Shown: positions 1,449 through 53,972, counted from the stretch's first letter. The stretch is 64,000 bases of DNA from Candidatus Falkowbacteria bacterium (GCA_963774955.1 CAVZGV010000003.1:64771-128770); one strand, 5' to 3'. A program made the numbers and translations. The notes: generated by a model not told the origin, from the letters alone.

Positions 1449-1874
1449 ATGCCACTAACAGGACCGTTTTTAGTCCCACAATTTATTGACGTCGAAAGCA
1501 AAATCTTCGGGCCGATTACCACGAGGCAGTTTTTGATAATGATGGTGGCAGCGATGTTGGATTTTTTATTCTATAAGATGCTTTATGCCAATACTGCCAT
1601 AATCGTAATCGTTATTAATACCGGTCTATTTATGATAGTTGCTTTTTTAAAGATTAACGGCATGCCCTTCCATATTTTCTTTGTAAATCTGATGCAGACT
1701 TTATTGCGTTCCAGCGTAAGAATTTGGAGGCGGGTGGAAGTCACTGCTTTACCACCGGTGGAGAAAGAAGATGTTAAAAAAGAATTTGTCCCCAAAACTG
1801 CAATTCCAGAATCCAGACTTTCTTCTCTTTCCCTGACAATTAATACCGGCGGCGCTTATAAGGAAGAGGATTAG
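1449..1874 (+). CDS. small two-TM membrane protein, VirB3/PrgI-like (T4SS/conjugation-type), immediately upstream of VirB4-like ATPase
   Basis: 141 aa, two hydrophobic helices, position directly before VirB4-family gene as in Gram-positive/CPR T4SS loci. Confidence 0.45.
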   Translation: MPLTGPFLVPQFIDVESKIFGPITTRQFLIMMVAAMLDFLFYKMLYANTAIIVIVINTGLFMIVAFLKINGMPFHIFFVNLMQTLLRSSVRIWRRVEVTALPPVEKEDVKKEFVPKTAIPESRLSSLSLTINTGGAYKEED

Positions 1875-1976
1875 CGACGTGTTTTATTTGCTTCCGAATA
1901 CCCCGCATTTTTACCAGACTAGCTTTTTCACCCAGCCACCTTTTACCAATTAAATTATATATTCATATTTATTTTT

Positions 1977-4590
1977 ATGGCTTTTGCTTCCACTCAAAAA
2001 TATTTGCATATTTCCGAATTTCGTAACGACATGGTCATTCTTAAAGACGGTACTTTGAGAATGGTTATTATGTGTTCCAGTGTTAATTTTGCGCTTAAAG
2101 GTGAAGATGAACAAAGCGCTTTGATCGCCGGCTACATGGAATTTTTAAATTCCATGGATTATCCTATCCAGATTGTGATCCAGTCCAGAAAATTAGACAT
2201 TGAAGGCTATATGCGTCGTCTGCAGGAGGCGCAAAAGGCTCAAACCAATGAGTTATTGAAGACACAAATTGACGGCTATCGCGGTTATATCAATCAATTA
2301 ATTGAAATGCAGGAAATAATGACCAAGAAATTTTTTATTGTTATACCATTTAATCCGCTTGGTTCTAAAAATAAGAGTTTTTTTGCCAGGTTAAAGGAGT
2401 CTTTATTCCCGGTCCATCTTATTCGTTTACGGAAAGAAAAATTAGCTGAATACAAGGATGAAATAATGCTTAGAGCTGATAACGTGATGTCTAATTTGAG
2501 ATCAATGGGGCTTGAAGCCGTGGTCTTGGATACTCAGAGCTTAATTGAGCTTTATTATAATGTATATAATCCCAAAACCAGCCAGAATGAGAGATTAAAA
2601 GATGTCAGCCAGATGGGCTTGGAAGCTTAAATATTATTTTGAATTTATTATCTTATGCCATTAGAAATTAATCAACAAACCCAAGGCCCTCAGCCAAAAC
2701 AGCCTAAAGTGACTGCGGCGCAAATGAAAGCCCAGGAATCATCAGCGGCCAAAGGCGAGGCCATTACCTTGGAAGAAGAAAAAATTTATCGCCACGGTGT
2801 GATGGATATCAAGGATTTGATTTCCCCGGCTGCTTTTGAAGTTAAGCCGACTTATTTAATTTTAGGGGATATTTATTGTCCGAACATTTTTTGTTTTGAA
2901 TTATCCTCGCTATATTAATATTGGTTGGTTTACTCCGATTGTTAATTTGAGTAAGACCCTGGATGTGGCGATGTTTTTTTATCCGGTTAAATCAGATATG
3001 ATTTTAAAGCAACTAAAAAAAAGAGTCGGTAATATGGAAGCCCAGCTGATGTCTGATATTGAAAAAGGCGCGCCACGTGATCCGATTTTGGAAACCGGTT
3101 TGCGAGACATTGAAAAATTAAGAGATGATTTGACCCAGGGCATTGAGCAATTTTTTCAATTTGCTCTTTATATCACCATTTATGCCAAAAATATGGAGGA
3201 ACTGGAACAATTCAGCTTCGGAAATTGAATCAATATTTGGCGGTAAATTGATTTATAGTAAAAAAGTTTTTTATCAGGCGGAACAGGGCTTTAATTCTAC
3301 TATTGCCCATGGCCAATGATGAACTGATGATTTCTTTTAATATGAATACTTCGCCGGTGCGCCTCTTCTTTTCCGTTTATTTCTTCAGAATTGACCTCTG
3401 ACAACGGAATTTTATACGGGATTAATCGTCATAATAATAGTTTGATTTTTTTTGACAGATTTTCTTTGCAAAATGCCAATACGGTGGTTTTTGCCACTTC
3501 CGGTGCCGGTAAAAGTTATGCTATTAAATTGGAAGTTTTGCGTAGTTTAATGTTGGGCACTGATGTAATTATTATTGATCCGGAAAGGGAATATAAGCAT
3601 TTGTCTGAAGCTGTCGGCGGAACTTATATTGATATTTCTTTATCTTCAAAAAATAAAATTAATCCTTTTGATTTGCCTCGAGCCATTGGCGATGCCACCA
3701 CCGAAGATATTATCAGAAGCGCGGTTATTACTTTAAAAGGTTTATTGACGTTAATGCTGGGTAAACTGACAATTGAAGAAGATTCAATTTTGGATCGCGC
3801 CTTAATGGAAACTTATGCCAGTAAAGATATTACTCCCCAGTCTGATTTGGCTAAGATTGAAGCGCCGATTATGCAGGATTTGCAGAATATTTTAGACGGC
3901 ATGGAAGGCGCAAGCAATTTAAGCTTGAGGTTGAAAAAATATACCGAAGGTACTTTTTCCGGTTTATTTAACTCAGCCGACCAATGTGGATATGAAAAAT
4001 CAGTTGGTTGTTTTTTCGTCCGAGATTTGGAAGATGAATTACGGCCAATTGCTATTTACAGTATTATTAATTATATCTGGAATGTGGTTCGTTCAGAGAT
4101 TAAAAAAAGAATTTTGGTTATTGATGAAGCCTGGTGGCTGATGACTAGTGAGGATTCGGCTAAATTTATTTATGCTCTGGTTAAACGTTGTCGTAAATAT
4201 TATCTGGGCGTAACCACCATTACTCAGGATGTTAATGATTTTTTAAATAATCCTTATGGCAAGGCAATTGTGACTAATTCTTCATTGCAATTGCTTTTGA
4301 AACAATCTCCGGCTTCAATTGAAAATATCGTTAAAATATTTATGTTGACTGAGGGTGAAAAATATTTGCTTTTGGAATGCGGAGTCGGTGAAGGTATTTT
4401 TTTTGCCGGCCAGAAACATGCCGCTATTAAAATTGTGGCTTCTTATACTGAAGATCAGCTAATTACCAGTGATCCGCATCAACTTTTGGAAATTGAAGCG
4501 TCTAAACGAGAATTTGAACAGAAAAATGCAGCTGGGGAAGAAGCAGGTCAGGCTCCAAAGCGGGAAGGTGTTGAGGAAATAGCAATTTAA
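1977..4590 (+). pseudogene. virB4: VirB4/TrbE/CagE-family type IV secretion ATPase, disrupted into >=5 pieces (1977-2630, 2655-2918, 2896-3228, ~3225-3390 in two further frames, 3391-4590)
   Basis: N-terminal CagE_TrbE_VirB-like domain in 1977-2630; Walker A FATSGAGKSYAIK and Walker B VIDEAWW in 3391-4590; in-frame TAA (2628-2630) and TGA (2640-2642) plus at least three frame changes; summed length about 860 aa as expected for VirB4. Confidence 0.6.
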
Positions 4591-6079: not shown

Positions 6080-6081
6080 TT

Positions 6082-6108
6082 CCGCAAAGCGGAATCCCGC
6101 TTTGCGGG
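6082..6108. repeat. hairpin-pair repeat R2a (ccgcaaagcgg-aat-cccgctttgcggg)
   Basis: two adjacent GC-rich hairpins; 25/30 identical to 10506-10532. Confidence 0.7.
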
Positions 6109-6129
6109 AAACCCTACGTTCGTGTTATT

Positions 6130-6216
6130 CGGAGAGGGTGGGATTTGAACCCACGGTCCCGTAAACGGGACTCCGGTTTTCAAGACCGGTACATTCAACC
6201 GCTCTGCCACCTCTCC
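6130..6216 (-). tRNA. tRNA-Ser (anticodon TGA), class II with long variable arm
   Basis: cloverleaf: acceptor ggagagg/cctctcc, anticodon loop cuUGAaa, T-loop ttcaaat; close to canonical bacterial tRNA-Ser. Confidence 0.85.
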
Positions 6217-6231
6217 ATAATAGGGACTTCC

Positions 6232-6327
6232 TGGCGGAGAGGGGGAGATTCGAACTCCCGCGCCGACTAAAAACGCCGACCTACAGGTTTAGCAAACCCG
6301 CCCCTTCAGCCTCTTGGGTACCTCTCC
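6232..6327 (-). tRNA. tRNA-Ser (anticodon GCT), CCA encoded
   Basis: acceptor ggagagg/cctctcc+gcca, anticodon loop ttGCTaa, T-loop ttcgaat, long variable arm. Confidence 0.85.
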
Positions 6328-6408
6328 AAAAGCCCTATTATGTCTAATATTTTATCTTAATTTAAAGAAAAAGTCAAACTTAGTACTTAATATTAACAAA
6401 TTAAATAT

Positions 6409-6918
6409 ATGCAGCAAACTCAAGATTCAAACCTAAAAAAAGGTGAATTTGGACGAATATTTTTCGAATGGCAGATTCCTGAATATACAATGCATGAAAG
6501 AAGTAATGCCTGGTATATTGTTATGGCGATTATTGGCATTGGGCTGGTAATTTATAGTATTTTTACGGCAAATTTTCTTTTTGCCTTGATTATTATTTTG
6601 GCTACCTTTGTTGTCTATTTACGGGTATATTATACTCCCAAGGACTTGTTTTTCCAGATTACTGAAGATGGCATCGTCATAGGCAATCAGTTTATTGGCT
6701 ATGAAACACTGCAAAATTTTTATATCATCTATTATCCCCCGGCGATTAAAAAGCTTTTTTTCAGACGTAAGGGAATAAATTTGACCGACATTTCAGTTCC
6801 TTTGGATAAAATAAATCCTGTTCTACTCAGAAAACAACTGCTGATTTATCTGAATGAAGATTTGGACAAAGAGCATCAAAGCGCAGCTGATTTGATTGAG
6901 ATGCTGTTTAAATTGTAA
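6409..6918 (+). CDS. hypothetical membrane protein
   Basis: ORF track; two TM helices near N-terminus; terminator hairpin at 6941-6966. Confidence 0.5.
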   Translation: MQQTQDSNLKKGEFGRIFFEWQIPEYTMHERSNAWYIVMAIIGIGLVIYSIFTANFLFALIIILATFVVYLRVYYTPKDLFFQITEDGIVIGNQFIGYETLQNFYIIYYPPAIKKLFFRRKGINLTDISVPLDKINPVLLRKQLLIYLNEDLDKEHQSAADLIEMLFKL

Positions 6919-7067: not shown

Positions 7068-7139
7068 GTCCTCGTAGTTCAACGGATAGAACACAAGATT
7101 GCGGATCTTGTGATCCAGGTTCGATTCCTGGCGAGGGCA
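7068..7139 (+). tRNA. tRNA-Arg (anticodon read as GCG)
   Basis: acceptor gtcctcg/cgagggc, D-stem gttc/gaac, anticodon stem caaga/tcttg, loop ttGCGga, T-arm ccagg-ttcgatt-cctgg. Confidence 0.65.
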
Positions 7140-7147
7140 TACGTGGT

Positions 7148-7182
7148 TCTCCGCCGAAGGCGGATCCGCCTCTGGCGGAGAT
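7148..7182. repeat. hairpin-pair repeat R1a (ccgccgaaggcgg-at-ccgcctctggcgg)
   Basis: 34/37 identical to 10334-10366; lies between tRNA-Arg 3' end and its 17-nt duplicate. Confidence 0.7.
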
Positions 7183-7196
7183 TCCTGGTGAGGGCA
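7180..7196. repeat. 17-nt duplicate (16/17) of tRNA-Arg 3' end (7123-7139)
   Basis: gattcctggtgagggca vs gattcctggcgagggca. Confidence 0.7.
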
Positions 7197-7301
7197 TAAA
7201 TAAGTTTAAAGTTTAAAGTCAAAAGTTAAAAGTTTGGAAGATATATTTTAAAAAAATCCAAATACTGCTTCGCGGCATAACTTAGGAATAATAATTTCAA
7301 G

Positions 7302-9404
7302 ATGTATTCCTTAAGTGCTCCCATAGAAAATTTAACCCGGGTCGGTAAAACTACGGCCGGTCGTTTAAAAAGATTAGGCATTGCCACGGTCAATGACCTG
7401 CTTTTTTATTTTCCGTTCCGTTATGAGGATTTTAGTCAGGTGGTTAAAATAAATGATTTGCGGCCCAACCAGACAGTTACTATTAAAGGTAAGATTGTTT
7501 TGATTGAAAATAGGAGAGCCCATCGTCGCCGTATGACTATTACCGAGGCTTTGATTGAAGATGAAACCGGTTCAATTCAAGTTATCTGGTTTAATCAGCC
7601 TTTTTTAATAAAAAATTTAAAACCCGGTGATGAAGTTTTTATTGCCGGCACTACGGAGATAAATAATTTGTCCCTGCAGTTTACTTCACCGGCCTATGAA
7701 AAAATTACAGGCGGTGACAGCCTTAATACGGCTAAAATTGTACCGGTTTATCCCTTGACCAGCAATTTAACGCAAAAGCAATTGAGATTTTTAGTTAAAG
7801 TTGCTTTGGACTCGGTTAATCTGGTTAAAGAATGGCTGCCCAGGGAAATTTTGGATAAAAATAATTTAATGCCTTTGGCTCAAGCTTTGGCGGACATTCA
7901 TTTTCCGGCTAGTTTTGAGGTTCAGGCGCAGGCTCGTTATCGTTTTAAATTTGATGAGCTTTTTTTAATTGCCTTGCAAAGCCAGAGACTGCGTCAGTAT
8001 TTGGCTCAAACCAAAGCCCCGCAGATTGCGTTTAAAGAGCAGGAGATTAAAAATTTTGTCAGCAGTTTGCCTTTTACTTTGACCGCTGATCAGAAAAAAG
8101 CAGCCTGGCAAATCCTTTTAGATCTGGAAAAATCTCAGCCGGCCAACCGTTTGCTGGAAGGGGATGTCGGATCAGGCAAAACCGTGGTCGCAGCCATGGC
8201 CATTTTAAATACGGTTTTAAATGATTTTCAGGCGGTTTTAATGGCACCGACTGAAATTTTGGCCAGGCAACATTACAATGGAATCAAAACTTTATTAGCG
8301 CCGTTTAAAATTAAAACAGTTTTATTAACGAGCAGCGAAAAAGTATACTTTGACGGTCAGCAAGAAATTGTCGGGAAACATGAAGTTTTGAATTTGGTCA
8401 AAAACGGTAAGGCCCAATTAATAATCGGCACCCATGCTTTAATTCAGGATGAAGTTGAGTATAAGAATTTGGGTTTAGTCATTGTGGATGAGCAACATCG
8501 TTTCGGCGTGGAACAAAGGAAAACATTAAAAGATAAAAATAAAAACGGGTTGACACCTCATTTTATATCCATGACTGCTACGCCGATTCCCCGTTCGCTG
8601 GCTTTGATTTTATACGGCGATTTGGATTTATCCATGATTAAGGAAATGCCCAAGGGCCGTAAAAAAATTATTACCCGCCTGGTTGCTGAATCCGACCGGC
8701 AGCAGGCTTATCAGTTTATCAGGCAGGAAATTAATAACGGGCGTCAGGTTTTTGTCATTTGTCCCTTGATTGATCCTTCTGATAAATTGGGAGTCAAGTC
8801 AGTGACCGAAGAATTTAAAAAACTGGATAAGGAGATTTTTCCGGATCTCAAAATCGGTTTATTGCACGGCAAATTGAAAGGCAAGGAAAAAGAAGCAATT
8901 ATGGCCGACTTTAAAGCTAATGAAATTAAAATGCTGGTTTCCACTTCAGTGATTGAAGTCGGTATTGATATTCCCAATGCTACGATTATGATGATTGAAG
9001 GCGCGGATCGTTTCGGCCTGGCGCAATTACACCAGTTTCGCGGTCGGGTCGGCAGGGGAGAATACCAGTCTTATTGTTTCTTATTTGCGGAAAATTATCC
9101 CGCTAAACGGGATGCCGCTTCGCGGCATAATCCCAAGACTAGGGAAAGGCTGGAAGCCTTGGTTAAATCCAATGACGGTTTTGCTTTGGCTGAATATGAT
9201 CTTAAATTTCGCGGGCCTGGTGAGGTTTACGGCTCACGCCAATCTGGTTTGCCTGAATTACAGATTGCCAGTCTGACTGATTTGGAGTTGATTAATCTGA
9301 CCAAGGAACAGGCTAAGACTTTTTTTACTCAATATAAACTCGAAGATTTCCCTTGGCTTAAGGCTAAATTGGCTGAGAATAAACTGATTGATCATTTGGA
9401 ATAA
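7302..9404 (+). CDS. recG: ATP-dependent DNA helicase RecG
   Basis: 700 aa; N-terminal wedge domain, Walker A GDVGSGKT, DEQH box VIVDEQHRFG, conserved C-terminus TDGFALAEYDLKFRGPGE. Confidence 0.85.
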   Translation: MYSLSAPIENLTRVGKTTAGRLKRLGIATVNDLLFYFPFRYEDFSQVVKINDLRPNQTVTIKGKIVLIENRRAHRRRMTITEALIEDETGSIQVIWFNQPFLIKNLKPGDEVFIAGTTEINNLSLQFTSPAYEKITGGDSLNTAKIVPVYPLTSNLTQKQLRFLVKVALDSVNLVKEWLPREILDKNNLMPLAQALADIHFPASFEVQAQARYRFKFDELFLIALQSQRLRQYLAQTKAPQIAFKEQEIKNFVSSLPFTLTADQKKAAWQILLDLEKSQPANRLLEGDVGSGKTVVAAMAILNTVLNDFQAVLMAPTEILARQHYNGIKTLLAPFKIKTVLLTSSEKVYFDGQQEIVGKHEVLNLVKNGKAQLIIGTHALIQDEVEYKNLGLVIVDEQHRFGVEQRKTLKDKNKNGLTPHFISMTATPIPRSLALILYGDLDLSMIKEMPKGRKKIITRLVAESDRQQAYQFIRQEINNGRQVFVICPLIDPSDKLGVKSVTEEFKKLDKEIFPDLKIGLLHGKLKGKEKEAIMADFKANEIKMLVSTSVIEVGIDIPNATIMMIEGADRFGLAQLHQFRGRVGRGEYQSYCFLFAENYPAKRDAASRHNPKTRERLEALVKSNDGFALAEYDLKFRGPGEVYGSRQSGLPELQIASLTDLELINLTKEQAKTFFTQYKLEDFPWLKAKLAENKLIDHLE

Positions 9405-10219: not shown

Positions 10220-10921
10220 TTATATTTTGGATACAAAAGGATTGTCCCTGAGATAAAAGCGCCAGGGTTTATGCTTGTAAGCGCCGGCGTAATCAACACC
10301 AATGCGTTTTGCACTTTGTATTTGAGAAGGTTTTCCGCCGGAGGCGGATCCGCCCTTGGCGGATATTTTTTCCTTGGGATTTTCAGCCAGATAAAGCTTG
10401 GGACTGGTAATGATATTTACCCCGTTTAATTTTTTATCAATTTTTAAGGCCTGGCAGAGTTTGGCCGAACCATTGGTAAGTACAGTATAAAGTCTAAAGT
10501 CTAGGCCGCGAAGCGGCATCCCGCAACGCGGGAAAGTTAAAAGTTTGGAATTTTTTATCTTAAGTTTACGATTTTTATACATTTGTTTAATGCCGGCGAC
10601 AGGTTCCAGGGCGCGGATTAAGATGGCGGCAGGGAAGTCCTTGGCTTCGGTTACAATATTAAAGCAATAATACATACCATAAACCAGATAAATATAAGCT
10701 GTACCCGGCTGGTCAAACATAATTTTGGTGCGTTCAGTTTTGCCGCGGGACGCATGTGAAGCTTTATCTTTCGGCCCGTAATAGGCCTCGGTTTCGACAA
10801 TTTTACCAATTAAAATATTTTTACCGTCTTGCCGCAGCAGGTATTTGCCCAAAAGTGCTTGAGCCAGCTTAAAGGTATTTTGTTTAAAAAAATTTGCGTT
10901 TAAACGTCGGTAGTTTGACAT
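10220..10921 (-). CDS. mpg: DNA-3-methyladenine glycosylase (Mpg/AAG family) carrying two in-frame repeat-derived insertions
   Basis: N-terminal ETEAYYGPKDKASHA...YIYLVYGMYYCFN, C-terminal RIGVDYA...WRFYL; about 35 aa longer than typical; extra segments coincide with repeats at 10334-10366 and 10487-10560. Confidence 0.75.
   Translation of the reverse strand: MSNYRRLNANFFKQNTFKLAQALLGKYLLRQDGKNILIGKIVETEAYYGPKDKASHASRGKTERTKIMFDQPGTAYIYLVYGMYYCFNIVTEAKDFPAAILIRALEPVAGIKQMYKNRKLKIKNSKLLTFPRCGMPLRGLDFRLYTVLTNGSAKLCQALKIDKKLNGVNIITSPKLYLAENPKEKISAKGGSASGGKPSQIQSAKRIGVDYAGAYKHKPWRFYLRDNPFVSKI
10334..10366. repeat. hairpin-pair repeat R1b, in frame inside mpg (encodes KGGSASGGK)
   Basis: tccgccggaggcggatccgcccttggcggatat; matches R1a. 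Confidence 0.7.
10487..10560. repeat. composite repeat inside mpg coding sequence: aaagtctaaagtcta + hairpin pair R2b (10506-10532) + aaagttaaaagtttggaa
   Basis: flanks match 7201-7246 (same flanks without the hairpin pair); R2b matches R2a. Confidence 0.65.
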
Positions 10922-11243: not shown

Positions 11244-12583
11244 TTATATAACTTTCTTGATGGCCTGTTCCAGATTTTTTACAGGTACTAATTCTTTTTG
11301 TGAGGGTGCGGTTTTGCCAACCGGTATGATAATTTTCTTAAAGTTTAGTTTCAAGGCCTCTTCGATTCTTTTGTCCAGCTGGTAAACCGGCCGGATTTCA
11401 CCACCCAAGCCGACTTCGCCCAAAATCAGGGTTTGCGGGTCAATAGCTTTGTTTTTTAGGGAAGAAACAATAGCCAGGCAAACTGCCAGGTCAGCGCCGG
11501 TTTCGTTGATTTTAAGGCCCCCAGTGACGTTTAAATGGATATCCTGGTTGAGCAAGGGTACATCAGCCCGTTTAATTAGGACAGCTGCCAGCATTTGCAG
11601 TCGATTCAAATCATAGCCTGAACTTCGTCTTTGCGGGTAGCCAAACATGGTTTTGGTAACCAGCGCCTGGACTTCAATCAAAAACGGCCGACTGCCTTCC
11701 ATAATGCAAGTCAGAGCAGAACCGGAAATAGGCGTCTGATTGATGCGGTAGAAAAAGTTCTGAGGGATTTTTTACTTCCAGCAGGCCGCTTGAGCTCATG
11801 CTGAATATGCCGATTTCCTGGGTTGAGCCAAATCGGTTTTTGGCGCAGCGCAGTGAGCCGAAAATCATCCGAAGTTGAACTTTCCAAATACATGACTGCA
11901 TCAACCAGATGTTCCAGTGATTTGGGACCGGCGACCTGGCCGTCTTTAGTCACATGACCGATGATTAGAATGGCGATATTATATTTTTTGGCTATTTCTA
12001 AAAGTTTAACCGTACAAATCCTGACCTGATTAATTGATCCGGCCTCGGAAGGAAGTTCATTAGAATATAAGGTTTGGATGGAATCAATGATAATTAAACT
12101 TGGTTTTTCTTCGACTGCAAATCCGGTAATTTTTTCAACGTTGTTTTCGGCCAGAAATTTTAATTTGGGAAAATCCAGATTAAGCCGGTCAATTCTCATT
12201 TTTATCTGGGAGGCTGATTCTTCACCGGAAACATAAAGAATGGGGGACTGGAGCTGATGGCAGAGTTGTAAAACCAGGGTTGATTTGCCGATGCCGGGTT
12301 CGCCGCCCAGCAGGATTAAACTGCCGGCGACAATACCGCCGCCCAAGACGCGGTCAAATTCGCCGATCTTAGTTTGCAAACGTTCGAATTTGGGAGTGGC
12401 TGAAGTTTTAAAGTCAATGAGTTGGGATTTATCTACCTTTATAGTTGTCATTTGAATTTTGTCATTTGTCATTTCTTCGGCTATGGTTCCCCAGGCGCTG
12501 CAAGTCGAACAGCGCCCAGTCCACTTGGGATACTGGGCGCCGCATTTTGAGCAAGCGTATATTGTCTGAGGTTGTTTAGACAT
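11244..12583 (-). CDS. radA: DNA repair protein RadA, interrupted by two frameshifts in this sequence (pieces 12583-11711, about 11904-11760, 11702-11244)
   Basis: N-terminal zinc ribbon [18 protein letters not shown], Walker [16 protein letters not shown] motif in a second frame, Lon-like C-terminal domain in a third. Confidence 0.75.
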
Positions 12584-12589
12584 GATGGT

Positions 12590-12782
12590 TATTTATTCAA
12601 CCCCCTCTTTGATTCTCCCCCTAATCATAGGGGGAGAGTGCGGGAATATCGGATTTTCCGTAAACACCCCTCCTTACAAAGGAGGGGATCGGGGGAGGTT
12701 CTCGGATACTTTATCAACTCCCTCCCACCTTCGCTAAAGCTACTGTGGGCTAGCTGTATCTCCCTCTAATCTTAGAGGGAGA
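12590..12782. repeat. GC-rich three-hairpin tail of DUF559 copy 1 (C' 12614-12637, B' 12667-12687, A' 12759-12782)
   Basis: perfect 9-10 bp stems tctccccctaatcatagggggaga, cccctccttacaaaggagggg, tctccctctaatcttagagggaga; homologous to 31851-32011. Confidence 0.75.
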
Positions 12783-13175
12783 TTCCGGAAGTGCAGGCTG
12801 AGTTTTGATTTTACGATCGTTTATTTCCTTACAAAGACAATATAGTTCCTCAACCACTGAATCAATATCTTCAAAGATTTGGTGATTCCAATATCTTTTT
12901 ACAATAATTCCGCAATCTTGTAAATATTTATCCCTGATTTTATCTCTATTAATATTCTTTTGTAGGGTATGAATATCACCGTCTAATTCAATCGCTAATT
13001 TTAATTCAGGGCAATAGAAATCTACTATATAGTATCCAATCCCATATTGCCGACGGAATTTGTATCCTAACTTTTTGTTTCTTAATTCTTTCCAGAGTGT
13101 AACTTCAGCTGGAGTCATTTTTTCCCTTAATATTCTTCTTTTCGTTTTATGCAATTTTAAATTAAACAATTGCAT
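12750..13175 (-). CDS. DUF559 (Vsr/restriction-endonuclease-like fold) domain protein, copy 1
   Basis: 141 aa, signature FRRQY..YIVDFYCPELKLAIELDGDIH; about 65% aa identity to 31458-31889. Confidence 0.75.
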   Translation of the reverse strand: MQLFNLKLHKTKRRILREKMTPAEVTLWKELRNKKLGYKFRRQYGIGYYIVDFYCPELKLAIELDGDIHTLQKNINRDKIRDKYLQDCGIIVKRYWNHQIFEDIDSVVEELYCLCKEINDRKIKTQPALPESPSKIRGRYS

Positions 13176-13263
13176 TTGATTTTTTATTTTGGTTTTAATT
13201 TAGTATCTCTGGGCGCCGCATTTTGAGCAAGCGTATATTGTTTGAGGTTGTTTGGGCATGGGG

Positions 13264-14961
13264 TTATTGAAAAAGTGGAAAATCAGAGGCTTCTGGTACA
13301 CAGGTGCCGCCAACAGATAATATTTTAGAAGTTGGGGTAGAGCATTTTAATCCCGCTCGGCACTCACCATCTCCTCTAGTTGTTACGCTATTACCAACCC
13401 TGGAACAGGAATCACCTATTTCACCTCGAGCGCAGGTATTGGTTCCCGCCGTGTTGCAAATTTTTGTTTTACATTCAGCATTACTGTTACAAGCTGTGCC
13501 TGCATCTCCAGTTGTACAAATATTGCCTAAAGAGGTATTGCAAATCATGGGATCGCCATTGGGAGCTTTGGGGCATTGATCGTTTGAATTACAATAACAA
13601 ACACACAACTTATCGCCTTTTGTTTGATTACTCGGTGCGCAAATGGTTCCGCCGGGAAATTGGAGATGGCCACCTTCAATTGGTTCTATTTTACATTCGT
13701 ACTCACCTTTGTTGCAATATGTTAATTCTTTTACCCCTGTTATTTTATCCATTGTGACACCAACAGCGGCACCTGCCATTCCTAATGTGGCTGTAATTGG
13801 CAATTTTGCATAAGCTGTGACGAGGGAACCTGTTAACCCGCAGGTAAATCCGCTTTGACAAGTAGTACTACTCATTCTGTAAGGATCACAGCGGCCATAG
13901 CCTATTTTGGGCATGCACTTGTTAGCCCCAAATGTTCCAACGCTGGTATTACAGTAATAGCCTTTCTCAGAGGCACAATCTTTATCAGCATCAGCATTAG
14001 CATTATAACAATTTTTTATTGTTTCAAAAGATGCACCACCTAAGCATTCTTGGAAATCAGTACCGACGCAAGGATTACCCACATAGCCAAATTGACAATA
14101 ATTTAAGCCTGCCCAAGGAGCATAGCATCTTAATCCCTTGCAGTCTTCTTTCTCAGTTTTATCAGAGCAGTCTTTAAAAAGTGATTCGGTAATATCAATG
14201 CATTTGCCGTCAGTACATTTGCCGCCGCAACAAAGGCGGTCTTCAGTGCAGGCTTCGCCGTTTTTAGTGCAATCTACACATTCCCAGGAACCGCTATTTT
14301 TACAAACCTTATCAGTACCTAAGGCTGAGCAGTCTTTGCCGGTGCATTTTGTTTTAAATGAATCTTCATAGGCTTCGCCGCATTTTTTAGTTAGGTCATC
14401 TGTGCAGGTGGTATTGTTTTCCAGATCCAAAGTGCGCAATTCGCCGACGCATAAACCAGGGGAGACTAATTTGCCTTTCTTGGCATCACAGTCGGCTTTT
14501 AATAAAAATTCATATTGTTTTTCACCTGTTTGACAGCATTTCGTGCCTTCTATTACTGTAATGGATAATGGCTGGAGCAGAATTGTGCCCGGTGCGACTA
14601 CTTGCAGGATGATAATCGCAAAAAGAGAGATACAGATGCCCAGGACAGCTTTGAAAATAGTATCTTTGGCTTTCTCGATATTTGACGGCGCTGCTCCGGA
14701 AAGTGTCCACAGGACACCGCCATACATGATCATAATAATAGCCAGGGCAATAACAGTGGCCGACCCAAATAAAAAGACAGCTTTGATATATTCGGCAATA
14801 GTTGAACCAGTAATCGGTAAACTGGCCGGTAAATCACCAAAAGGCACCTGTAGATCTAAAAAATCAAGCTGCGCCAGGCAGATAGGCAGGAAGATATTGA
14901 AAACCGTAACAATAATAAAGACAATAATCGGAAAAAGAAAAATTTTAGGCAATTTTGGCAT
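13264..14961 (-). CDS. cysteine-rich (about 60 Cys) surface protein with N-terminal signal peptide + two-TM hairpin (VirB2/T4SS-pilin-like topology)
   Basis: N-terminus MPKLPKIFLF..CLAQ then two helices; about 430-aa domain full of CxxC/GxC spacings; no homolog recognised. Confidence 0.55.
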   Translation of the reverse strand: MPKLPKIFLFPIIVFIIVTVFNIFLPICLAQLDFLDLQVPFGDLPASLPITGSTIAEYIKAVFLFGSATVIALAIIMIMYGGVLWTLSGAAPSNIEKAKDTIFKAVLGICISLFAIIILQVVAPGTILLQPLSITVIEGTKCCQTGEKQYEFLLKADCDAKKGKLVSPGLCVGELRTLDLENNTTCTDDLTKKCGEAYEDSFKTKCTGKDCSALGTDKVCKNSGSWECVDCTKNGEACTEDRLCCGGKCTDGKCIDITESLFKDCSDKTEKEDCKGLRCYAPWAGLNYCQFGYVGNPCVGTDFQECLGGASFETIKNCYNANADADKDCASEKGYYCNTSVGTFGANKCMPKIGYGRCDPYRMSSTTCQSGFTCGLTGSLVTAYAKLPITATLGMAGAAVGVTMDKITGVKELTYCNKGEYECKIEPIEGGHLQFPGGTICAPSNQTKGDKLCVCYCNSNDQCPKAPNGDPMICNTSLGNICTTGDAGTACNSNAECKTKICNTAGTNTCARGEIGDSCSRVGNSVTTRGDGECRAGLKCSTPTSKILSVGGTCVPEASDFPLFQ

Positions 14962-17001: not shown

Positions 17002-18393
17002 TTATGATTGCGGTGCTATTAATAACAGGAATAACGAAATAACAATTACCGGTGAGAGCAGGATCATTAAACAGATTATAAGTAACATCAGGATTATAGC
17101 GTCTAAGATGAGGAAAACAGCAATTTCAGCAATTTCAAAAAGCATCCACATGATTCTATCAGCCTTTTTATCAAAAGAATCATTGCCATCACTTATTTTT
17201 TCAGATTCTCCCGAGCCTCCTGATGTGCCGCCACCTCCTCCGGCAGCACCGCCACCTCCTCCGGCAGCACCGCCAGCTCCTCCGGCAGCGCCTCCAGCAC
17301 CTCCAGCAGCTCCGGCAGCACCGCCAGCTCCTTCGGCAGCTATATTTAGATATTCTTTCCATTCATGACCAAAACGGCAGACATATTTAGAATGTGCAAA
17401 ATATTTAACCAGAAAATGTATATTAATATAGATAATTCCTACGATAGGACCGAGAATTGTTTCCAGGTTAATTATGAGTGCCCAGGCATCACTTAAAAAT
17501 TGAGCTGATACTTTTTGCCCGATCATTATAATTACATCTTGGGCCACTTTCTTGGCAGCTTTAGCTGCTTCTCTGATCTTCATTTGAGAGGCTGCTCTTT
17601 GCATTCTCTGCAAATCTCTTTGCATGGCTTTTTCCGGATCTTCTTCCTGTTCTTTATCCTTGCCTTTATCCTCTGCTCCTTTTTTCTTATCTTTAGATTG
17701 GTCTTCTTCCCCTTGTTTTTCCTGGCCTCCTTGGCCCTGTATTAATTTAGTTTGATCAGACGGACCTGCTTCTTCAGGCGGTTCCGCCCCTGGTCCGGCT
17801 GAGGTTGGCTGCCGTTGCGCTACTCTGAAATCACGCGCTTGTTGATTTTCCTGTTGCTGTTCTTCTGGTTTTTCCGTGTTTTTATCTTGATCCGAGCTTT
17901 GTTGTTCCGGTTCTTTGCCCCCAGTTTGAGTTTGATCAGCAGGTTGCTGGTTACCGGTTTCGGCTTGGTTTTGTTCTGTAGTATTTTTATCTTGATCCGG
18001 ACCTTGTTGTTCCGGTTCTTTGCTCTCAGCTTGAGTTTGATCAGCAGGTTGCTGATTACCAGTTTCAGCTTGCGCATTACCATTAGTGGCCTGGCCTTGG
18101 TTTGCCGATGGAGCTCCTGACTTTTTCGGGGCAGTCATATTACCAGCTTGTTCTTGAGGCCCTGTTTTTTTCCCTTCCGCTTCATTAGCCAGGTTACCAG
18201 GTTCGTCTGGCGATCCTGGTTCTTGTGGTTGGCCATTTTTTCCCTTAGGTTTGCTTTGCGGAGTCTCATCATCATCAAGTTTTTCCGGTTTGGGGATATC
18301 TCCGGATATTTTAACTTGTCTTTTCTGATCACGTAAATTACGGCCCTGATCTTTTTCTTGGTTATTGGCTGGTGAAGTATTTGAATCGACCAT
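17002..18393 (-). CDS. hypothetical membrane protein with long disordered Q/E/K/G-rich N-terminal region, internal 35-aa tandem duplication and Gly/Ala repeat between TM helices
   Basis: 105-bp direct repeat x2 at 17879-18088; GAGGAAGAAGGAGG stretch; C-terminal hydrophobic helices. Confidence 0.5.
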   Translation of the reverse strand: MVDSNTSPANNQEKDQGRNLRDQKRQVKISGDIPKPEKLDDDETPQSKPKGKNGQPQEPGSPDEPGNLANEAEGKKTGPQEQAGNMTAPKKSGAPSANQGQATNGNAQAETGNQQPADQTQAESKEPEQQGPDQDKNTTEQNQAETGNQQPADQTQTGGKEPEQQSSDQDKNTEKPEEQQQENQQARDFRVAQRQPTSAGPGAEPPEEAGPSDQTKLIQGQGGQEKQGEEDQSKDKKKGAEDKGKDKEQEEDPEKAMQRDLQRMQRAASQMKIREAAKAAKKVAQDVIIMIGQKVSAQFLSDAWALIINLETILGPIVGIIYINIHFLVKYFAHSKYVCRFGHEWKEYLNIAAEGAGGAAGAAGGAGGAAGGAGGAAGGGGGAAGGGGGTSGGSGESEKISDGNDSFDKKADRIMWMLFEIAEIAVFLILDAIILMLLIICLMILLSPVIVISLFLLLIAPQS

Positions 18394-26305: not shown

Positions 26306-26339
26306 ATAAAAGAAAAGGAGCTCCGCAACGCGGAGCTCC
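26306..26339 (-). terminator. intrinsic terminator for gene 26355-28208 (palindrome ggagctccgc-aac-gcggagctcc + T-run on minus strand)
   Basis: perfect 10-bp stem then cttttctttt on minus strand. Confidence 0.7.
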
Positions 26340-26354
26340 TTTGATAATTTGTGG

Positions 26355-30409: not shown

Positions 30410-31450
30410 ATGGAATTAAAATTCAAAGAACTCAAAGAGCAGGCCTTGAAGGAGATTCAGGCGATTCGCAATTCGGAAGAGTGGCAGCAGATTGAGAATA
30501 AGTATTTTTCCAGAAAAAGCGGGGAATTGGCCAAGCTTTTGAAAGATCTCAAGGATGTTTCCGAGGATTTGCGTCCGAAAATTGGCGCGGTTGCCAATGA
30601 AATAAAAAATGAAATCAGTAAGGCTTTGGAACAAAAAAAAGTCAGATTTGAATTTGGATATTGATGAGGATTTGGAACATGATTTTATTGATGTAACTTT
30701 AGAAATTGAAAAATATAAGCTTGGTCATTTGCATCCTTTGACTCAGGTGCAAATGGAACTGGAAGATATTTTTAAATCCATGGGTTTTATGATTTTGGAC
30801 GGTCCGGAGCTGGAATCGGATTATTATAATTTTGAAGCTTTAAATCTTCCGTCTTGGCATCCGGCTCGTGATATGCAGGATACTTTTTATATTGATCCCA
30901 AGACTGTGAACGGCACGGAAAATTTGCTTATGCGCACTCAAACTTCACCGGTACAAGTGCGGGCAATGCAAAAATATGGCGCGCCTTTGCGTTGTGTGAT
31001 GCCCGGCCGTTGTTTTCGTAATGAAGCCACTGATGTGCGTCATGAACATACTTTTTATCAGATGGAAGGCTTGATGATTGATAAAAATATTTCTTTTAAT
31101 GATATGTGCGGTGTTTTTGGAAACAGTGGCTAAAGAATTATACGGAGATGACACTAAATTAAGATTGCGACCAAAATATTATCCTTTTGTGGAGCCGGGT
31201 GTTAACGGAGAAGTGACTTGTTTTTTGTGCCATGGCAAAGGTTGTAAATTATGCAAACAGACCGGCTGGCTGGAAATCGTCGGCGCGGGCATGGTTCATC
31301 CCAATGTTTTGAAAGCCGGCAATGTTGACCCCAATAAATATCAGGGTTTTGCTTTTGGTTTTGGCTTAACCGGTTGGTGATGCTGAAATACAATATTGAC
31401 GATGCCAGGTTATTGCAGAGTGGGGATTTACGTTTCTTAAACCAATTTTA
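30410..31450 (+). CDS. pheS: phenylalanine--tRNA ligase alpha subunit, interrupted by three single-nt frameshifts (about 30640, about 31100, about 31378)
   Basis: class II motifs across four frames: N-terminal helix, [28 protein letters not shown]-terminal [20 protein letters not shown]. Confidence 0.8.
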
Positions 31451-31457
31451 GATTATA

Positions 31458-31889
31458 ATGCAGTTGTATAATATAAAAGTGCATAAAGAGAAAAGAAGGA
31501 TTTTAAGAAACACAATGACACCCGCTGAAGTTGCGCTTTGGGTAGAATTGAAAAATGAAAAATTAGGATATAAATTTCGACGACAATATGGAGTCGGTCA
31601 CTATATAATTGATTTTTATTGTCCTCAACTTAAATTCGCCATTGAATTGGATGGCGATGTTCATGCCATTGATAGTGTTCATAAAAAAGATCTGATTAGG
31701 GATAAATTTTTGGAAGAATGCGGGATTACCATGAAAAGATTTTGGAATCACGAGATATTTGAGGATATAAATTCAGTTTTGGAGGTGATAGTTAATCTTT
31801 GTCAACAAAAAACCGATTGTAATTCTAAGGTACAGCCGTCTCATCCGGAGTCTCCCTCTAAGATTAGAGGGAGATACAGAGGGAGTTGA
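31458..31889 (+). CDS. DUF559 (Vsr/restriction-endonuclease-like fold) domain protein, copy 2, inserted between pheS and pheT
   Basis: 143 aa; FRRQY..YIIDFYCPQLKFAIELDGDVH; paralog of 12750-13175 in inverted orientation. Confidence 0.75.
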   Translation: MQLYNIKVHKEKRRILRNTMTPAEVALWVELKNEKLGYKFRRQYGVGHYIIDFYCPQLKFAIELDGDVHAIDSVHKKDLIRDKFLEECGITMKRFWNHEIFEDINSVLEVIVNLCQQKTDCNSKVQPSHPESPSKIRGRYRGS

Positions 31890-32030
31890 TCGGGTAACCC
31901 GAATTCCCCGAATACCCCGAGAACCTCCCCCGAACCCCTCCTTTGTAAGGAGGGGAGATTGCGGGGAATGCCGTGACCACTAAGGATTCTCCCCCTTAGA
32001 CAAGGGGGAGACAAAGAGGGGGGGGTAAAT
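31851..32030. repeat. GC-rich three-hairpin tail of DUF559 copy 2 (A 31851-31874, B 31935-31955, C 31988-32011)
   Basis: A tctccctctaagattagagggaga overlaps ORF 3' end (encodes SPSKIRGRY); B identical to copy-1 B'; spacers also conserved. Confidence 0.75.
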
Positions 32031-32093: not shown

Positions 32094-34538
32094 ATGGATA
32101 TCTCAAAAAATTGGCTCCAAGATTTTGTAAAAATACCAGACTCTTTATCAGCTAAAGAGCTGGGTTCGAAATTAACCATGTCCACGGCTGAAGTGGAGGG
32201 GATGACTGATCAGGCTGAAAGTTTGAGAGGTGTTGTTGTGGGAGAAATTTTGGAAGTCAAAAAGCATCCTAATGCCGATAAATTACAGTTGACCGTAGTT
32301 GATATTGGCTCGCCTTCGCATAAAGCTTCGGCGAATGCAGACAAAGAGAAATTAAATATAGTCTGCGGTGCGCCTAATATTGCAGTCGGACAAAAAGTTC
32401 CGGTCGCCACTATTGGAACCAAATTGCCGAATGGTATGGAAATCCAGAAAGCCAAAGTTCGCGGTGAAGAATCTAGTGGCATGCTTTGCGCTGAAGATGA
32501 ACTGGGTCTGGGTAAAGATCATGCCGGGATTTTAATTTTAGACAGTAAAGTCATGGTCGGAGAATCTTTGACTAAGGCTTTAGGTTTAGATGATACTATT
32601 TTTGAATTTGATAATAAATCTTTAAGCAATCGTCCTGATTTATGGTCACATTACGGTATTGCTAGGGAAGTTGCGGTTTTATTGGGCGAAAAGTTAAAGG
32701 AATTTAAAGTGAATGTTAAGGAACCGGGAAAACCCGCAGAAAAGCTTGATATTAAAATTGATGATTATAAATTATGCCCGCGATATTGCGGCGTTGTCTT
32801 GGAAGGCATTAAAATTGCGGAATCACCTGATTGGCTAAAAAAACGAGTAGCTAGCGTGGGCATGCGTTCAATCAATAATATTGTTGATATTACCAATTAT
32901 GTAATGATGGAAATCGGTCAGCCTCTTCATGCGTTTGATTACGATAAATTAGCGGAACATAGGATTATTGTTCGTAAAGCTAAAAAAGGCGAAAAAATAA
33001 AGACTTTGGATGAACAAACCAGAGAACTTGATGAGAGTATGTTAGTGATTGCCGATGCCAGTAAGCCCGTAGCTATTGCCGGGATAATGGGTGGAGCAAA
33101 TACGGAAATTGATAATAATACTAAAAAAGTCATTATTGAATCTGCTAATTTTGACCATGTCTCTGTGCGCCAAACCGAAACAAAATTAAATTTAAGAACA
33201 GAAGCTTCCATCCGCTTTGAAAAGTCTTTGGATCCGAATTTGTCTGAATGGGGGATTAAGCGCGCCATTGAATTGATTCTACAGGTTTGCCCACAAGCTA
33301 AACTTGTTTCTAAAATTGAAGACGTAAAAAAGTTTAAATTGAACCAGGGTCCTATAAAATTAAGTTTTGATTTTATAACTAAAAAAATCGGACAGGAAAT
33401 TCCTAAAGATAAAGTCATGAAGATTTTATCAAGTTTGGGCTTTGTGATTAAAAAAGGTGTTAAGGATTTAGGCGTGACCATCCCAACCTGGCGCGCCACG
33501 AAGGATATTTCCATCCCAGAGGATTTAGTGGAAGAAGTGATTAGAATTTACGGTTACAACAATTTGAAATCAAGCCTGCCCATGATTGAAATTTCTAAGC
33601 CCGAAGCCAATACTGAGCGTGATTTGGAACGAAAGATCAAACAGCTCTTGGCCTATGGTTTTGGCTTAAGCGAAGTCTACAATTATTCGTTTGTCGGTGA
33701 GGAACAGGTGAAAAAACTAGGTTTAAAGATAGAAGATCATGTCCGGCTGGCGAATCCCCTGGCTAAAGAGTGGAATTTACTCAGGCGCTCTTTAGTCCCC
33801 AATCTCGTGAATAATGCCGCAACTAATTGCCGTAATTATGATGACTTCGGGCTATTTGAGGTCGGTTCCATATTCTGGCCTGGAGCCAAAGGCGAAAAAA
33901 TATCCGACAAGTCAGATAAAACCTTGCCTTTGCAGGTGAAAATGATGGCCGGGATTATTTGCGAAAAGAAAAATGACCGACCATTTTTTAACGCGAAAAA
34001 TATAATGGCCGGGCTTTTAGCTAAACTGCATTTTAATTATAGCTTTGAGAAATCAGCCGAGCCCTGGCCCTTTATTAATAAAAACCGCACAGTTAAAATT
34101 TTGGTTGAAGGCAAAGAAATTGGCTATGTTACGGAATTGGCAGATGATATCTATGATAAATTTAATATTTTGAATAAAATAGGTATTTTTGAGTTTAATT
34201 TGACTAAATTGACTCTTTTATATAAAGAGGCTTTGAAATATAAGCCGATTCCAAAATTCCCTAGTATTGAACTGGATATTTCCATGATTATAGCCAAAAA
34301 GATTCTCTGGGAAGAAATTTATCAGGCGGTTAAAGACGTTGACAAGGATTTAATCCGTAAAATATCGTTTTTTGATGTTTATGAAGGCCAGGGTATTCCC
34401 GAAGGCAAAAAATCAATTGCCTTCAGAATAGAATATCGTTCTGATGACAAGACCTTGACCATGGATGAAGTTCAGATTATTCATCAGAAAGTTTTAAATA
34501 TATTGAACTCAAAATTTGAAGCTCAAATAAGACAATAA
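32094..34538 (+). CDS. pheT: phenylalanine--tRNA ligase beta subunit
   Basis: 814 aa intact; N-terminal tRNA-binding domain, B3/4 and B5 domains. Confidence 0.85.
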   Translation: MDISKNWLQDFVKIPDSLSAKELGSKLTMSTAEVEGMTDQAESLRGVVVGEILEVKKHPNADKLQLTVVDIGSPSHKASANADKEKLNIVCGAPNIAVGQKVPVATIGTKLPNGMEIQKAKVRGEESSGMLCAEDELGLGKDHAGILILDSKVMVGESLTKALGLDDTIFEFDNKSLSNRPDLWSHYGIAREVAVLLGEKLKEFKVNVKEPGKPAEKLDIKIDDYKLCPRYCGVVLEGIKIAESPDWLKKRVASVGMRSINNIVDITNYVMMEIGQPLHAFDYDKLAEHRIIVRKAKKGEKIKTLDEQTRELDESMLVIADASKPVAIAGIMGGANTEIDNNTKKVIIESANFDHVSVRQTETKLNLRTEASIRFEKSLDPNLSEWGIKRAIELILQVCPQAKLVSKIEDVKKFKLNQGPIKLSFDFITKKIGQEIPKDKVMKILSSLGFVIKKGVKDLGVTIPTWRATKDISIPEDLVEEVIRIYGYNNLKSSLPMIEISKPEANTERDLERKIKQLLAYGFGLSEVYNYSFVGEEQVKKLGLKIEDHVRLANPLAKEWNLLRRSLVPNLVNNAATNCRNYDDFGLFEVGSIFWPGAKGEKISDKSDKTLPLQVKMMAGIICEKKNDRPFFNAKNIMAGLLAKLHFNYSFEKSAEPWPFINKNRTVKILVEGKEIGYVTELADDIYDKFNILNKIGIFEFNLTKLTLLYKEALKYKPIPKFPSIELDISMIIAKKILWEEIYQAVKDVDKDLIRKISFFDVYEGQGIPEGKKSIAFRIEYRSDDKTLTMDEVQIIHQKVLNILNSKFEAQIRQ

Positions 34539-52239: not shown

Positions 52240-52410
52240 AGATAATATACAGCCTTGATCAGGGGTTTGGCTCCCTGGGAGCTGTGAATATATGAGGTGT
52301 CCTCCTTCGCTAAAGCTTCGGAGGAAACTTGGGTGGAACCGCCCTAAATAAAAAGGGGTCCCAAGATGGCAAGGTATTGTTGTATTTGCCGTTTCGGGAC
52401 TCTTTTTGTT
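52240..52410 (+). promoter_or_regulatory. probable glycine T-box leader of glyQS (T-box GGGTGGAACCGCC at 52331-52343; terminator 52358-52410)
   Basis: T-box consensus match, preceding hairpin cctccttcgctaaagcttcggagg (52301-52324), downstream hairpin + T-run. Confidence 0.5.
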
Positions 52411-53943: not shown

Positions 53944-53972
53944 AAAACCCCTCCGCGCTGCGGAGGGGTTTT
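53944..53972. terminator. bidirectional intrinsic terminator aaaa-cccctccgcgctgcggagggg-tttt between glyQS and the aminotransferase
   Basis: read directly. Confidence 0.75.

Follow-up and report, generated by a model that had tools for sequence, protein, structure and literature searches.

Three families of GC-rich hairpins with a 30-nt unit, here called A, B and C, recur along a 64-kb stretch, read on one strand, of the Buchananbacteria-like genome of an ultra-small bacterium of the Parcubacteria (Patescibacteria); this whole stretch, of 40% GC, is hereafter the window. Copies lie between genes, in an RNA leader, in a tRNA fragment and, in frame, inside conserved enzymes, among them the DNA-3-methyladenine glycosylase encoded by mpg. 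Our preferred reading, to which we assign a probability of roughly 0.7, is that they are selfish repeats, akin to the repetitive extragenic palindromes (REPs), that have become part of intergenic DNA, RNA leaders and tRNA fragments as well as of protein-coding genes. Relative to close orthologs, each coding copy is a clean addition of 10 codons. The elements nest within one another (family C in family C in glyS, family B in an AT-rich repeat, R3, in mpg, and family C within a cassette encoding a DUF559 protein), and element families are common to many unrelated genes and genomes. The exact Mpg and GlyRS of the window are recorded for a contig of 565,549 bp. The nearest named homologs of the two proteins come from metagenome-assembled genomes of Candidatus Parcubacteria, Buchananbacteria and Patescibacteria, and four syntenic loci of relatives (L001, L002, L124 and L125) served for comparison.

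Hairpin families of the window

Family A consists of two copies of TCCGCCnnnGGCGGA, which form a double hairpin (pattern TCCGCCN3GGCGGATCCGCCN3GGCGGA); family B is a double hairpin made of GCCGCGAAGCGGC followed by ATCCCGCnnnGCGGGA, and family C is YCCWCCTYCGCTRAAGCTWCGGWGGRCARG (also written CCTCCTYCGCTAAWGCTWCGGWGG). Pattern searches returned two matches to family A (7150-7179 and 10334-10363), three to family B (6081-6109, 9098-9126 on the minus strand with one mismatch, and 10505-10533) and three to family C (52301-52324, 52455-52478 and 53556-53579), compared in every case with 0.00 in dinucleotide-preserving shuffles. For family C, nhmmer further uncovered a copy at 12724-12753 and a split outer copy starting at 53537. 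All repeats that a previous sequence-only reading of this DNA had located were present, either exactly or a few bases off, and none is expected by chance. As DNA, families A and B are predicted to fold into stable double hairpins (-11 to -14 kcal/mol; z from -3.1 to -4.2), and the same holds for RNA. GC content of the elements is 53-77%, above the 40% of the window, in which roughly one in two copies of A, B or C is coding.

Intergenic copies of both repeats found in Mpg, which the same reading had reported, were recovered. A family A copy (7150-7179, no strand assigned) occupies the position of the T-loop (GGTTC^GATTCC) within a partial 3' duplicate of tRNA-Arg (7143-7198), and a family B copy (6081-6109 by pattern, 6081-6110 as element, plus strand) is placed between a comF-like gene and tRNA-Ser. 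R3 itself (7196-7250) makes up, along with half of a family B hairpin (7262-7277), an intergenic plus-strand block upstream of recG (7196-7277). Two family C copies had likewise been taken for non-coding DNA. The one at 12724-12753 (plus strand) is indeed intergenic, between the DUF559 gene and radA, with no counterpart at the same position of a second DUF559 cassette, whereas that at 52301-52324 corresponds to Stem III of the glyS T-box leader.

Two in-frame insertions in Mpg

The mpg gene (10220-10921, minus strand) encodes a 233-aa protein with PF02245 homologs and similarity to human AAG in the PDB (E 5e-36), and carries two insertions. Their proposed identity with a repeat termed R1b and with a composite of R3 and R2b was borne out by codon-level alignment and by the flank match to 7196-7250. 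At site 2, a family A element (10334-10363, minus strand; DNA fold -12.2 kcal/mol, z -3.1) encodes SAKGGSASGG (aa 187-196). This block, TCCGCCAAGGGCGGATCCGCCTCCGGCGGA, is found between ...AAAAT(A/T) and AAACC... in the window and in L001, and exactly these 30 nt are missing from L002. At site 1, the window alone has 42 extra nt (14 aa) over L001 and L002, within a composite (10487-10560, minus strand) of R3, built of AT-rich heptamers (AAGTYWA), and a family B element (10505-10534, minus strand) that encodes FPRCGMPLRG (aa 130-139). Once the 30-nt family B unit is removed, the AT-rich heptamer remainder aligns at ~85% to intergenic 7196-7250, which indicates that site 1 holds family B nested in another repeat. 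The estimate that Mpg exceeds its typical length by ~35 aa was right in direction and is corrected here to 26 aa with respect to a 207-aa insert-free syntenic ortholog; the excess over the shortest orthologs (186-189 aa) is ~45 aa.

Structural modelling predicts that both inserts form low-confidence loops of an otherwise confident protein. In an AlphaFold2 model built on 32 orthologs (mean predicted local distance difference test score, pLDDT, of 82), pLDDT drops below 50 only at residues 135-138 and 187-197, that is, in both inserts. In the model the fold of human AAG is retained, with a target-normalised template-modelling score of 0.83-0.89, and the HMMER alignment of Mpg to AAG opens gaps at both insert positions.

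A single origin of the site-2 insert found no support, as the proteins bearing it were monophyletic in 0/100 neighbour-joining bootstraps, a result that a crude tree of 186 columns renders suggestive only. The mpg element is identical at 27/30 positions between the window and L001, and the remaining gene is 71% identical. Together, non-monophyly and element conservation suggest either that the insert was gained repeatedly at a hot spot or that it was lost precisely.

At these two sites, Mpg orthologs from other Parcubacteria have different palindrome-derived peptides (e.g. CHPELSRRMT..., SSSAEALKERR) or none. Alignment of P0002, P0007-P0009, P0013, P0016, P0020, P0061 and P0085 places the unrelated palindrome-derived peptides CHPELSRRMT..., LLRGAGRGLPS and QCPIPN in one loop, and their scattered phylogenetic spread indicates that different repeat families have landed in this loop repeatedly. 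The site-2 insert of the P0003 Mpg is longer and apparently nested.

Insertions in RecG, GlyRS and a glycosyltransferase

A family B copy (9096-9125, plus strand, one pattern mismatch) lies antisense within recG (7302-9404) and adds YPAKRDAASR (aa 599-608) to the protein. These 10 residues are missing in L001 and L002, whose RecG is 77-79% identical overall, and T. maritima RecG (1gm5) shows a 10-residue gap opposite the insert, at a site after helicase motif VI. An 18/18 match of recG to R2b had been spotted from the sequence; the match is real, but its extent was set too small, as it covers the whole 29-30-nt double hairpin.

At the N-terminus of GlyRS, a family C element (52454-52483, plus strand) encodes SSSAKATVDK (aa 6-15). 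The window protein reads MKKQE[SSSAKATVDK]SNSLEKI, as against MKKQETNSLEKI in the 85%-identical L124, where the element is absent at the same codon. Further into glyS, a nested family C pair (53537-53596, plus strand; aa 367-386) is composed of an outer copy (53537-53554 and 53585-53596) and an inner one (53555-53584). The syntenic loci resolve this site into a series that runs from empty in L125 (GTT GAT / GGC GAG) through one 30-nt element in L124 (CCCTCCTCCGCTGAAGCTTCGGAGGGCAGG) to both elements in the window, where the second interrupts the first at the apex of its loop (GCT^TCGG). The proposal that the N-terminal and internal segments derive from hairpin copies therefore holds, as +10 aa and +10+10 aa relative to L124 and L125. 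The internal site aligns to the linker joining the catalytic and anticodon-binding domains, where P0142 and P0150 have different inserts.

A family-2 glycosyltransferase (43758-44840) contains an 18-aa extra segment, PTSALTEAKASMDKSAGR (44256-44309, plus strand), of degenerate nested family C structure. It is missing from the L125 ortholog, and 44277-44309 matches 53564-53596 at 82%.

Ortholog alignments of Mpg, GlyRS and RecG located lineage-specific indels exactly where the repeats lie, and the five junctions resolved by the mpg, recG and glyS comparisons displayed no flanking direct repeat or target-site duplication. A peptide across an insert junction would be, for example, EKISAKGGSASGGKPSQ. 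As an unbiased check, every open reading frame (ORF) of the window was compared with the four syntenic loci by tblastn. Where protein and ortholog were at least 60% identical, hairpin-derived segments were the sole indels of at least 4 aa, and the association of hairpins with indels is therefore not a selection artefact of the first reading.

In PheT, residues 73-84 (SPSHKASANADK, in the tRNA-binding domain) are encoded by TCGCCTTCGCATAAAGCTTCGGCGAATGCAGACAAA (32310-32345). This segment resembles a degenerate family C copy (nhmmer E 0.08), and the Pfam tRNA_bind match of PheT takes 111 residues over 95 profile positions.

Copies in a T-box leader and around tRNA-Arg

A family C hairpin (52299-52328, plus strand; 52300-52325 as CCTCCTYCGCTAAWGCTWCGGWGG) constitutes Stem III of the glyS T-box leader (52246-52366). 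Its match to Rfam RF00230 reaches 36.3 bits at E 1e-6, which falls well short of the gathering score (93), and its T-box sequence, AACTTGGGTGGAACCGCC, is recognisable. The L124 leader is ~90% identical otherwise, with a Stem III that is different but of equal length, and in L125 the glyS leader is absent. Across the window, only tRNAs reached the Rfam gathering threshold. Permissive scans of the hairpin-rich stretches yielded only the sub-threshold T-box match and noise, and ten loci with family C arrays from outside the Candidate Phyla Radiation (CPR) gave tRNAs only. These scans indicate that the hairpins are not explained by any described RNA family.

The tRNA-Arg(GCG) locus could be followed in the window (7068-7198), L001 (~6200-6720) and L002 (13330-13781). 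In L002 the gene is plain, unduplicated and uninterrupted, which makes it the empty site. The window has one added partial 3' copy, the one that bears family A at its T-loop position, and L001 has three tandem 3' partial copies downstream, arranged alike, and two 5' partial copies upstream, with hairpins at the D-loop (GTTC^AATGG). A double hairpin interrupts every partial copy. Insertion points in the D-loop and the T-loop read TTC^RAT.

Families A and C in metagenomes, genomes and viruses

A scan of metagenome contigs for family A recovered at least 118 copies in at least 120 loci, with ~0 expected by chance and a median locus GC of 43%. Among the matches listed, 70 of 118 copies (59%) fell in ORFs of at least 600 nt, compared with 66% of random positions (p=0.14), so that placement of the family with respect to ORFs is close to random expectation. 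One reading frame is strongly dominant within ORFs: frame 0, read as SAxGGSAxGG, accounts for 58 of these 70 listed copies (p=2e-17), and most of the others read PPKADPPLA. Host proteins examined by Pfam were FtsK, RecG, DnaE, AlaRS, MutL, GyrB, UvrC and UvrD, and the AlaRS insert occupies the same site in two contigs. Flanking nucleotides are inverted rather than direct: among the matches listed, 86% of copies have T at -2 and 83% have A at +2 (consensus tTt/TCCGCC...GGCGGA/aAa). Since the mpg insertion is a net gain of 30 nt over the empty site, these flanks are most readily taken to reflect a target preference, nTn^nAn.

The pattern used to search genome contigs for family C is degenerate, with ~35 matches expected by chance, and the matches are nevertheless genuine relatives, as positions that the pattern leaves unconstrained are conserved and covary. 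Flank position -1 pairs with pattern position 19 as T-A in 76, A-T in 25 and G-T in 9 copies, and flank -4 with flank +1 as C-G in 50 and T-A in 50, and C occupies flanks -2 and -3 in 89% and 94% of copies. The aligned set of family C comprises 124 distinct sequences. The 30-nt unit is thereby composed of a stem of 6 bp, a loop of 14 nt that does not vary (TYCGCTRAAGCTWC) and the tail CARG; the tetranucleotide GTAG is confined to the loop, where the reverse strand has it in roughly every second copy. Many phyla are represented in the matches listed (Bacteroidota, Verrucomicrobiota, Planctomycetota, Proteobacteria and Omnitrophota among them), and ~15 of the 80 titled loci are Patescibacteria. 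Outside CPR, family C builds tandem arrays with a 30-nt period and a nested arrangement as in the window, and it often adjoins tRNA genes. Long ORFs hold 38% of its copies, compared with 77% of random positions, mostly in the GlyRS frame among the matches listed.

Family A was present in 2 viral contigs and family C in 11, and none contained family B; these are too few to argue for phage carriage of the elements between hosts.

DUF559 cassettes and further features of the window

A duplicate, 94% identical, of the initial 52 nt of radA (12533-12584) lies at 13209-13260, and the two copies flank a ~625-bp cassette (12585-13208). It contains an ORF for a DUF559 protein (PF04480, PD-(D/E)XK-like; 12750-13175, minus strand), followed by hairpins in the order D-C-E-D'. 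A second DUF559 cassette (31457-32011), between pheS and pheT, has a 74%-identical ORF and the same hairpins, with no family C copy. DUF559 is found upstream of radA also in L001, not in L002, and the whole has the appearance of a homing-type or integrative mini-cassette by which the displaced gene end is restored. As a candidate mobilising enzyme, the DUF559 nuclease was discarded as a general partner of the elements: it is hairpin-flanked in the window, but tblastn found it in only 3 of 245 hairpin-bearing loci.

Two further hairpin families, TCTCCCYCTnnnnnnAGRGGGAGA and CCCCTCCTTnnAAGGAGGGGATCGGGGGAGG, are located in the 3' regions of both cassettes, with copies at 12611-12637, 12756-12782, 31848-31874 and 31985-32011, and at 12653-12705 and 31917-31969. 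The DUF559 ORFs take their C-terminal residues (SPSKIRGR) and their stop codon from one of these families, and peptides of the CCCCTCCTTnnAAGGAGGGGATCGGGGGAGG type (PLLNKEGVEGG) occur inside FtsK of a metagenome locus (L141).

Three genes, radA (11244-12583), a DUF4012 gene (45774-47626) and pheS (30609-31380), are each split into 2-3 overlapping ORFs and are intact in L002 and L125; they are either real pseudogenes or frameshifts, or the product of assembly indel errors. Two perfect hairpins with 13-bp stems, 3-nt loops and A/T runs, at 26314-26342 (AAAGGAGCTCCGCAACGCGGAGCTCCTTT) and 53944-53972 (AAAACCCCTCCGCGCTGCGGAGGGGTTTT), occupy spaces between convergent genes, as probable bidirectional terminators. 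Synteny with L001 and L002 assigns to 1449-4590 a type IV secretion or conjugation-like set (PrgI-like, TraC-like and a VirB4/TraG-like AAA_10 protein), whose ATPase is apparently split into ORFs 2896-3228 and 3391-4590. A 565-aa Cys-rich secreted protein with no Pfam match is encoded at 13264-14961, and the gene at 17002-18393 combines Pro/Ala/Gly-rich 21-nt tandem repeats (17202-17340) with a 105-nt duplication (17876-18072).

Proposed mobility of the elements and competing explanations

If the hairpins are selfish repeats, their insertion would be roughly blind to coding status, and selection would then retain only copies in surface loops, linkers and termini, in a frame with small or flexible residues (SAxGGSAxGG, SSSAKAxxDK). 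In this way the elements would keep supplying housekeeping enzymes with 10-aa indels. Mobility itself, and insertion directed by single strands or hairpins, are what we infer from these patterns: copying would probably take place in trans, on single-stranded or hairpin-extruded DNA, and the preferred sites appear to be nTn^nAn (TTY^RAA-like) and hairpin-loop apexes, without target-site duplication. Several points weigh against this account. Pfam scanning of window ORFs revealed no transposase, REP-associated tyrosine transposase (RAYT) or Y1 protein within the 64 kb, ORFs outside the scan being covered by precomputed Pfam labels of syntenic orthologs, with few having neither. Nor was a target-site duplication seen at resolved junctions, so that the argument for mobility is drawn solely from presence/absence patterns. 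The Mpg tree is that of a short protein and leaves recurrent gain inseparable from an ancestral insertion followed by precise loss. Family C forms a single hairpin with a large loop and a weak fold (z ~ -1.3 to -1.7). Finally, copy numbers of families A and C are lower bounds with an unquantified taxonomic spread, and coding status in metagenomes refers to stop-to-stop ORFs of at least 600 nt rather than to curated genes.

Alternatively, the hairpins could be functional nucleic-acid elements, such as mRNA stabilisers of the REP or bacterial interspersed mosaic element (BIME) kind, attenuators, terminators or protein-binding sites, selected for structure even where they are coding. Such a role would suit the intergenic copies at 6081 and 7150, directly downstream of genes or tRNAs, the family C copy that serves as T-box Stem III, the covarying stem and the 14-nt loop conserved across phyla in family C, and an mpg element better conserved than its host gene. 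We nonetheless judge it unlikely, since family A placement relative to ORFs is statistically the same as random, the host proteins are unrelated, close relatives have nothing inserted at the corresponding site and show no visible compensation, and no Rfam family matches. A lower probability still goes to an origin without dedicated mobility, in which ectopic gene conversion, hairpin template switching or break repair captured hairpin DNA and left the gene-end duplications as by-products. The T-box Stem III that differs from that of L124 at constant length, as if converted, the duplication of the 52-nt radA 5' end and of tRNA-Arg ends around hairpin-bearing inserts, and the lack of a transposase among the window ORFs scanned and of a target duplication are all in line with it. 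However, the empty sites of L125, L124, L002 and L001 offer neither hairpin nor homology to seed conversion, and identical 30-nt units occur in very distant genomes.

That the segments are flexible Gly/Ser/Ala protein linkers selected for function, with DNA palindromy being incidental, might be read from the strong bias towards SAxGGSAxGG and from their location in loops, linkers and termini. This explanation is largely refuted, and in our estimate very improbable: the same sequences reside in intergenic DNA, the T-box leader and tRNA fragments, further frames such as PPKADPPLA are used, GC-rich codons are fixed within a genome of 40% GC, and family C covariation pairs Ser..Glu with Thr..Val, for which there is no protein-level rationale. 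Assembly or sequencing artefacts deserve next to no credence. Apparent frameshifts in radA, the DUF4012 gene and pheS do suggest some indel errors in the assembly, but the same elements are in frame in independent assemblies (NCBI, JGI, ENA and Logan), and all inserts are multiples of 30 nt that keep the frame.

A bolder version of the selfish-repeat reading, which we put forward tentatively and hold to be less probable than not, regards A, B and C as an undescribed class of fixed-length 30-nt mobile hairpins that insert without target duplication at nTn^nAn sites and at the loop apexes of other hairpins, whether copies of themselves, D- or T-loops of tRNAs or stems of riboswitches, with family C shared across phyla and a few viral contigs. 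If true, it would imply a widespread mobilising or binding machinery and make these modules a principal generator of indels in essential CPR enzymes.

Relationship to known palindromic elements

The hairpins had been likened to the Rickettsia palindromic elements (RPEs). In behaviour the likeness stands, given the in-frame hairpin inserts in Mpg, RecG and GlyRS, but they do not belong to the RPE family, in view of their 30-nt size and non-Rickettsia host. RPEs (Ogata et al. 2000) are stem-loops of 105-150 bp with 12-bp terminal inverted repeats, specific to Rickettsia and read as selfish DNA (summarised in PMC2229807 and PMC10969869). As in that system, palindromes are found between genes, in frame in conserved enzymes and in RNA genes, and surface regions tolerate the inserts; unlike there, the window units are exactly 30 nt long, consist of one or two mini-hairpins, share no sequence similarity with RPEs and reside in Patescibacteria. 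The statement that such insertions are little described outside Rickettsia was too strong, as the literature already includes intragenic GTAG/CGTC REPs, often in replication and repair genes, and in-frame copies of enterobacterial repetitive intergenic consensus (ERIC) and Correia elements (PMC3733652, PMC2229807, PMC10969869).

In behaviour, the window elements come nearer to the intragenic GTAG/CGTC REPs than to RPEs. These REPs (Di Nocera et al. 2013) are GC-rich palindromes, 20-40 nt in length and frequently arranged as inverted dimers; inside genes they encode 20-30 aa, most conspicuously in the replication and repair genes UvrABCD, RecBCD and PolA, and different REPs may occupy approximately the same site of orthologs (PMC3733652). 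Units of 30 nt with palindromic structure, and family A as an inverted dimer of a 15-nt hairpin, fit this description. The accessible part of the report makes no mention of Patescibacteria (PMC3733652). There are also differences. The window elements lack a GTAG/CGTC terminal tag and end instead in TCCGCC...GGCGGA (A), GCCGC.../...GCGGGA (B) and YCCWCC...CARG (C). REPs are predominantly extragenic and downstream of ORFs, whereas family A lies in ORFs about as often as random positions do. REPs are further associated with RAYT (Y1/HUH) genes that they flank; the window ORFs scanned, from only 64 kb of a contig of at least 565 kb, gave no Y1_Tnp or other transposase match.

Paquin and colleagues reportedly described, in 2000, double-hairpin elements in the mitochondria of Allomyces. 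Short GC-rich hairpin elements are further represented by the repetitive hairpin elements (RHEs) of sponge mitochondria (PMC2800124) and by the GC clusters of yeast (PMC4478555). The window elements resemble these mitochondrial elements in their single, double or triple mini-hairpins, in the AT-rich reduced genome, in their location in intergenic DNA, rRNA and variable gene parts and in their tandem or nested organisation, and for the mitochondrial elements the mobilising enzyme is likewise unidentified. Those are organellar and of 17-84 bp, unlike the fixed 30 nt of a bacterial host that is free-living or episymbiotic, and the likeness is one of form, not of compared sequences. Bacterial MITEs (miniature transposable elements bounded by inverted repeats) also include in-frame copies, namely ERIC and the 107-bp form of Correia (PMC2229807), but with 100-200+ bp, terminal inverted repeats and TA or other duplications they differ from 30-nt elements with five junctions devoid of duplication.

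The window elements are thus members of none of the RPE, REP, MITE or mitochondrial hairpin families. What sets them apart is a fixed unit of 30 nt, a placement that is nearly random with respect to genes, their prevalence among essential enzymes of CPR bacteria and, for family C, a hairpin that crosses phyla. A literature search of incomplete coverage retrieved no description of hairpin elements of such kind in CPR bacteria and, because of that coverage, this absence is no proof of novelty.

Significance for CPR proteins

If these observations are general, much of the length variation and many of the 'low-complexity inserts' in proteins of CPR/Patescibacteria would be translated selfish DNA and not adaptive, which would affect ortholog alignment, phylogenomics, structure prediction and gene calling across a radiation that is very large and uncultivated. 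The insertions also provide a natural catalogue of sites that tolerate 10 residues in Mpg, RecG, GlyRS, AlaRS, GyrB, DnaE, UvrC/D, MutL and FtsK. A unit of constant 30-nt length, junctions free of target duplication, a preference for the loops of hairpins and the conservation of family C across phyla together pose a concrete search problem, that of the enzyme that copies them.

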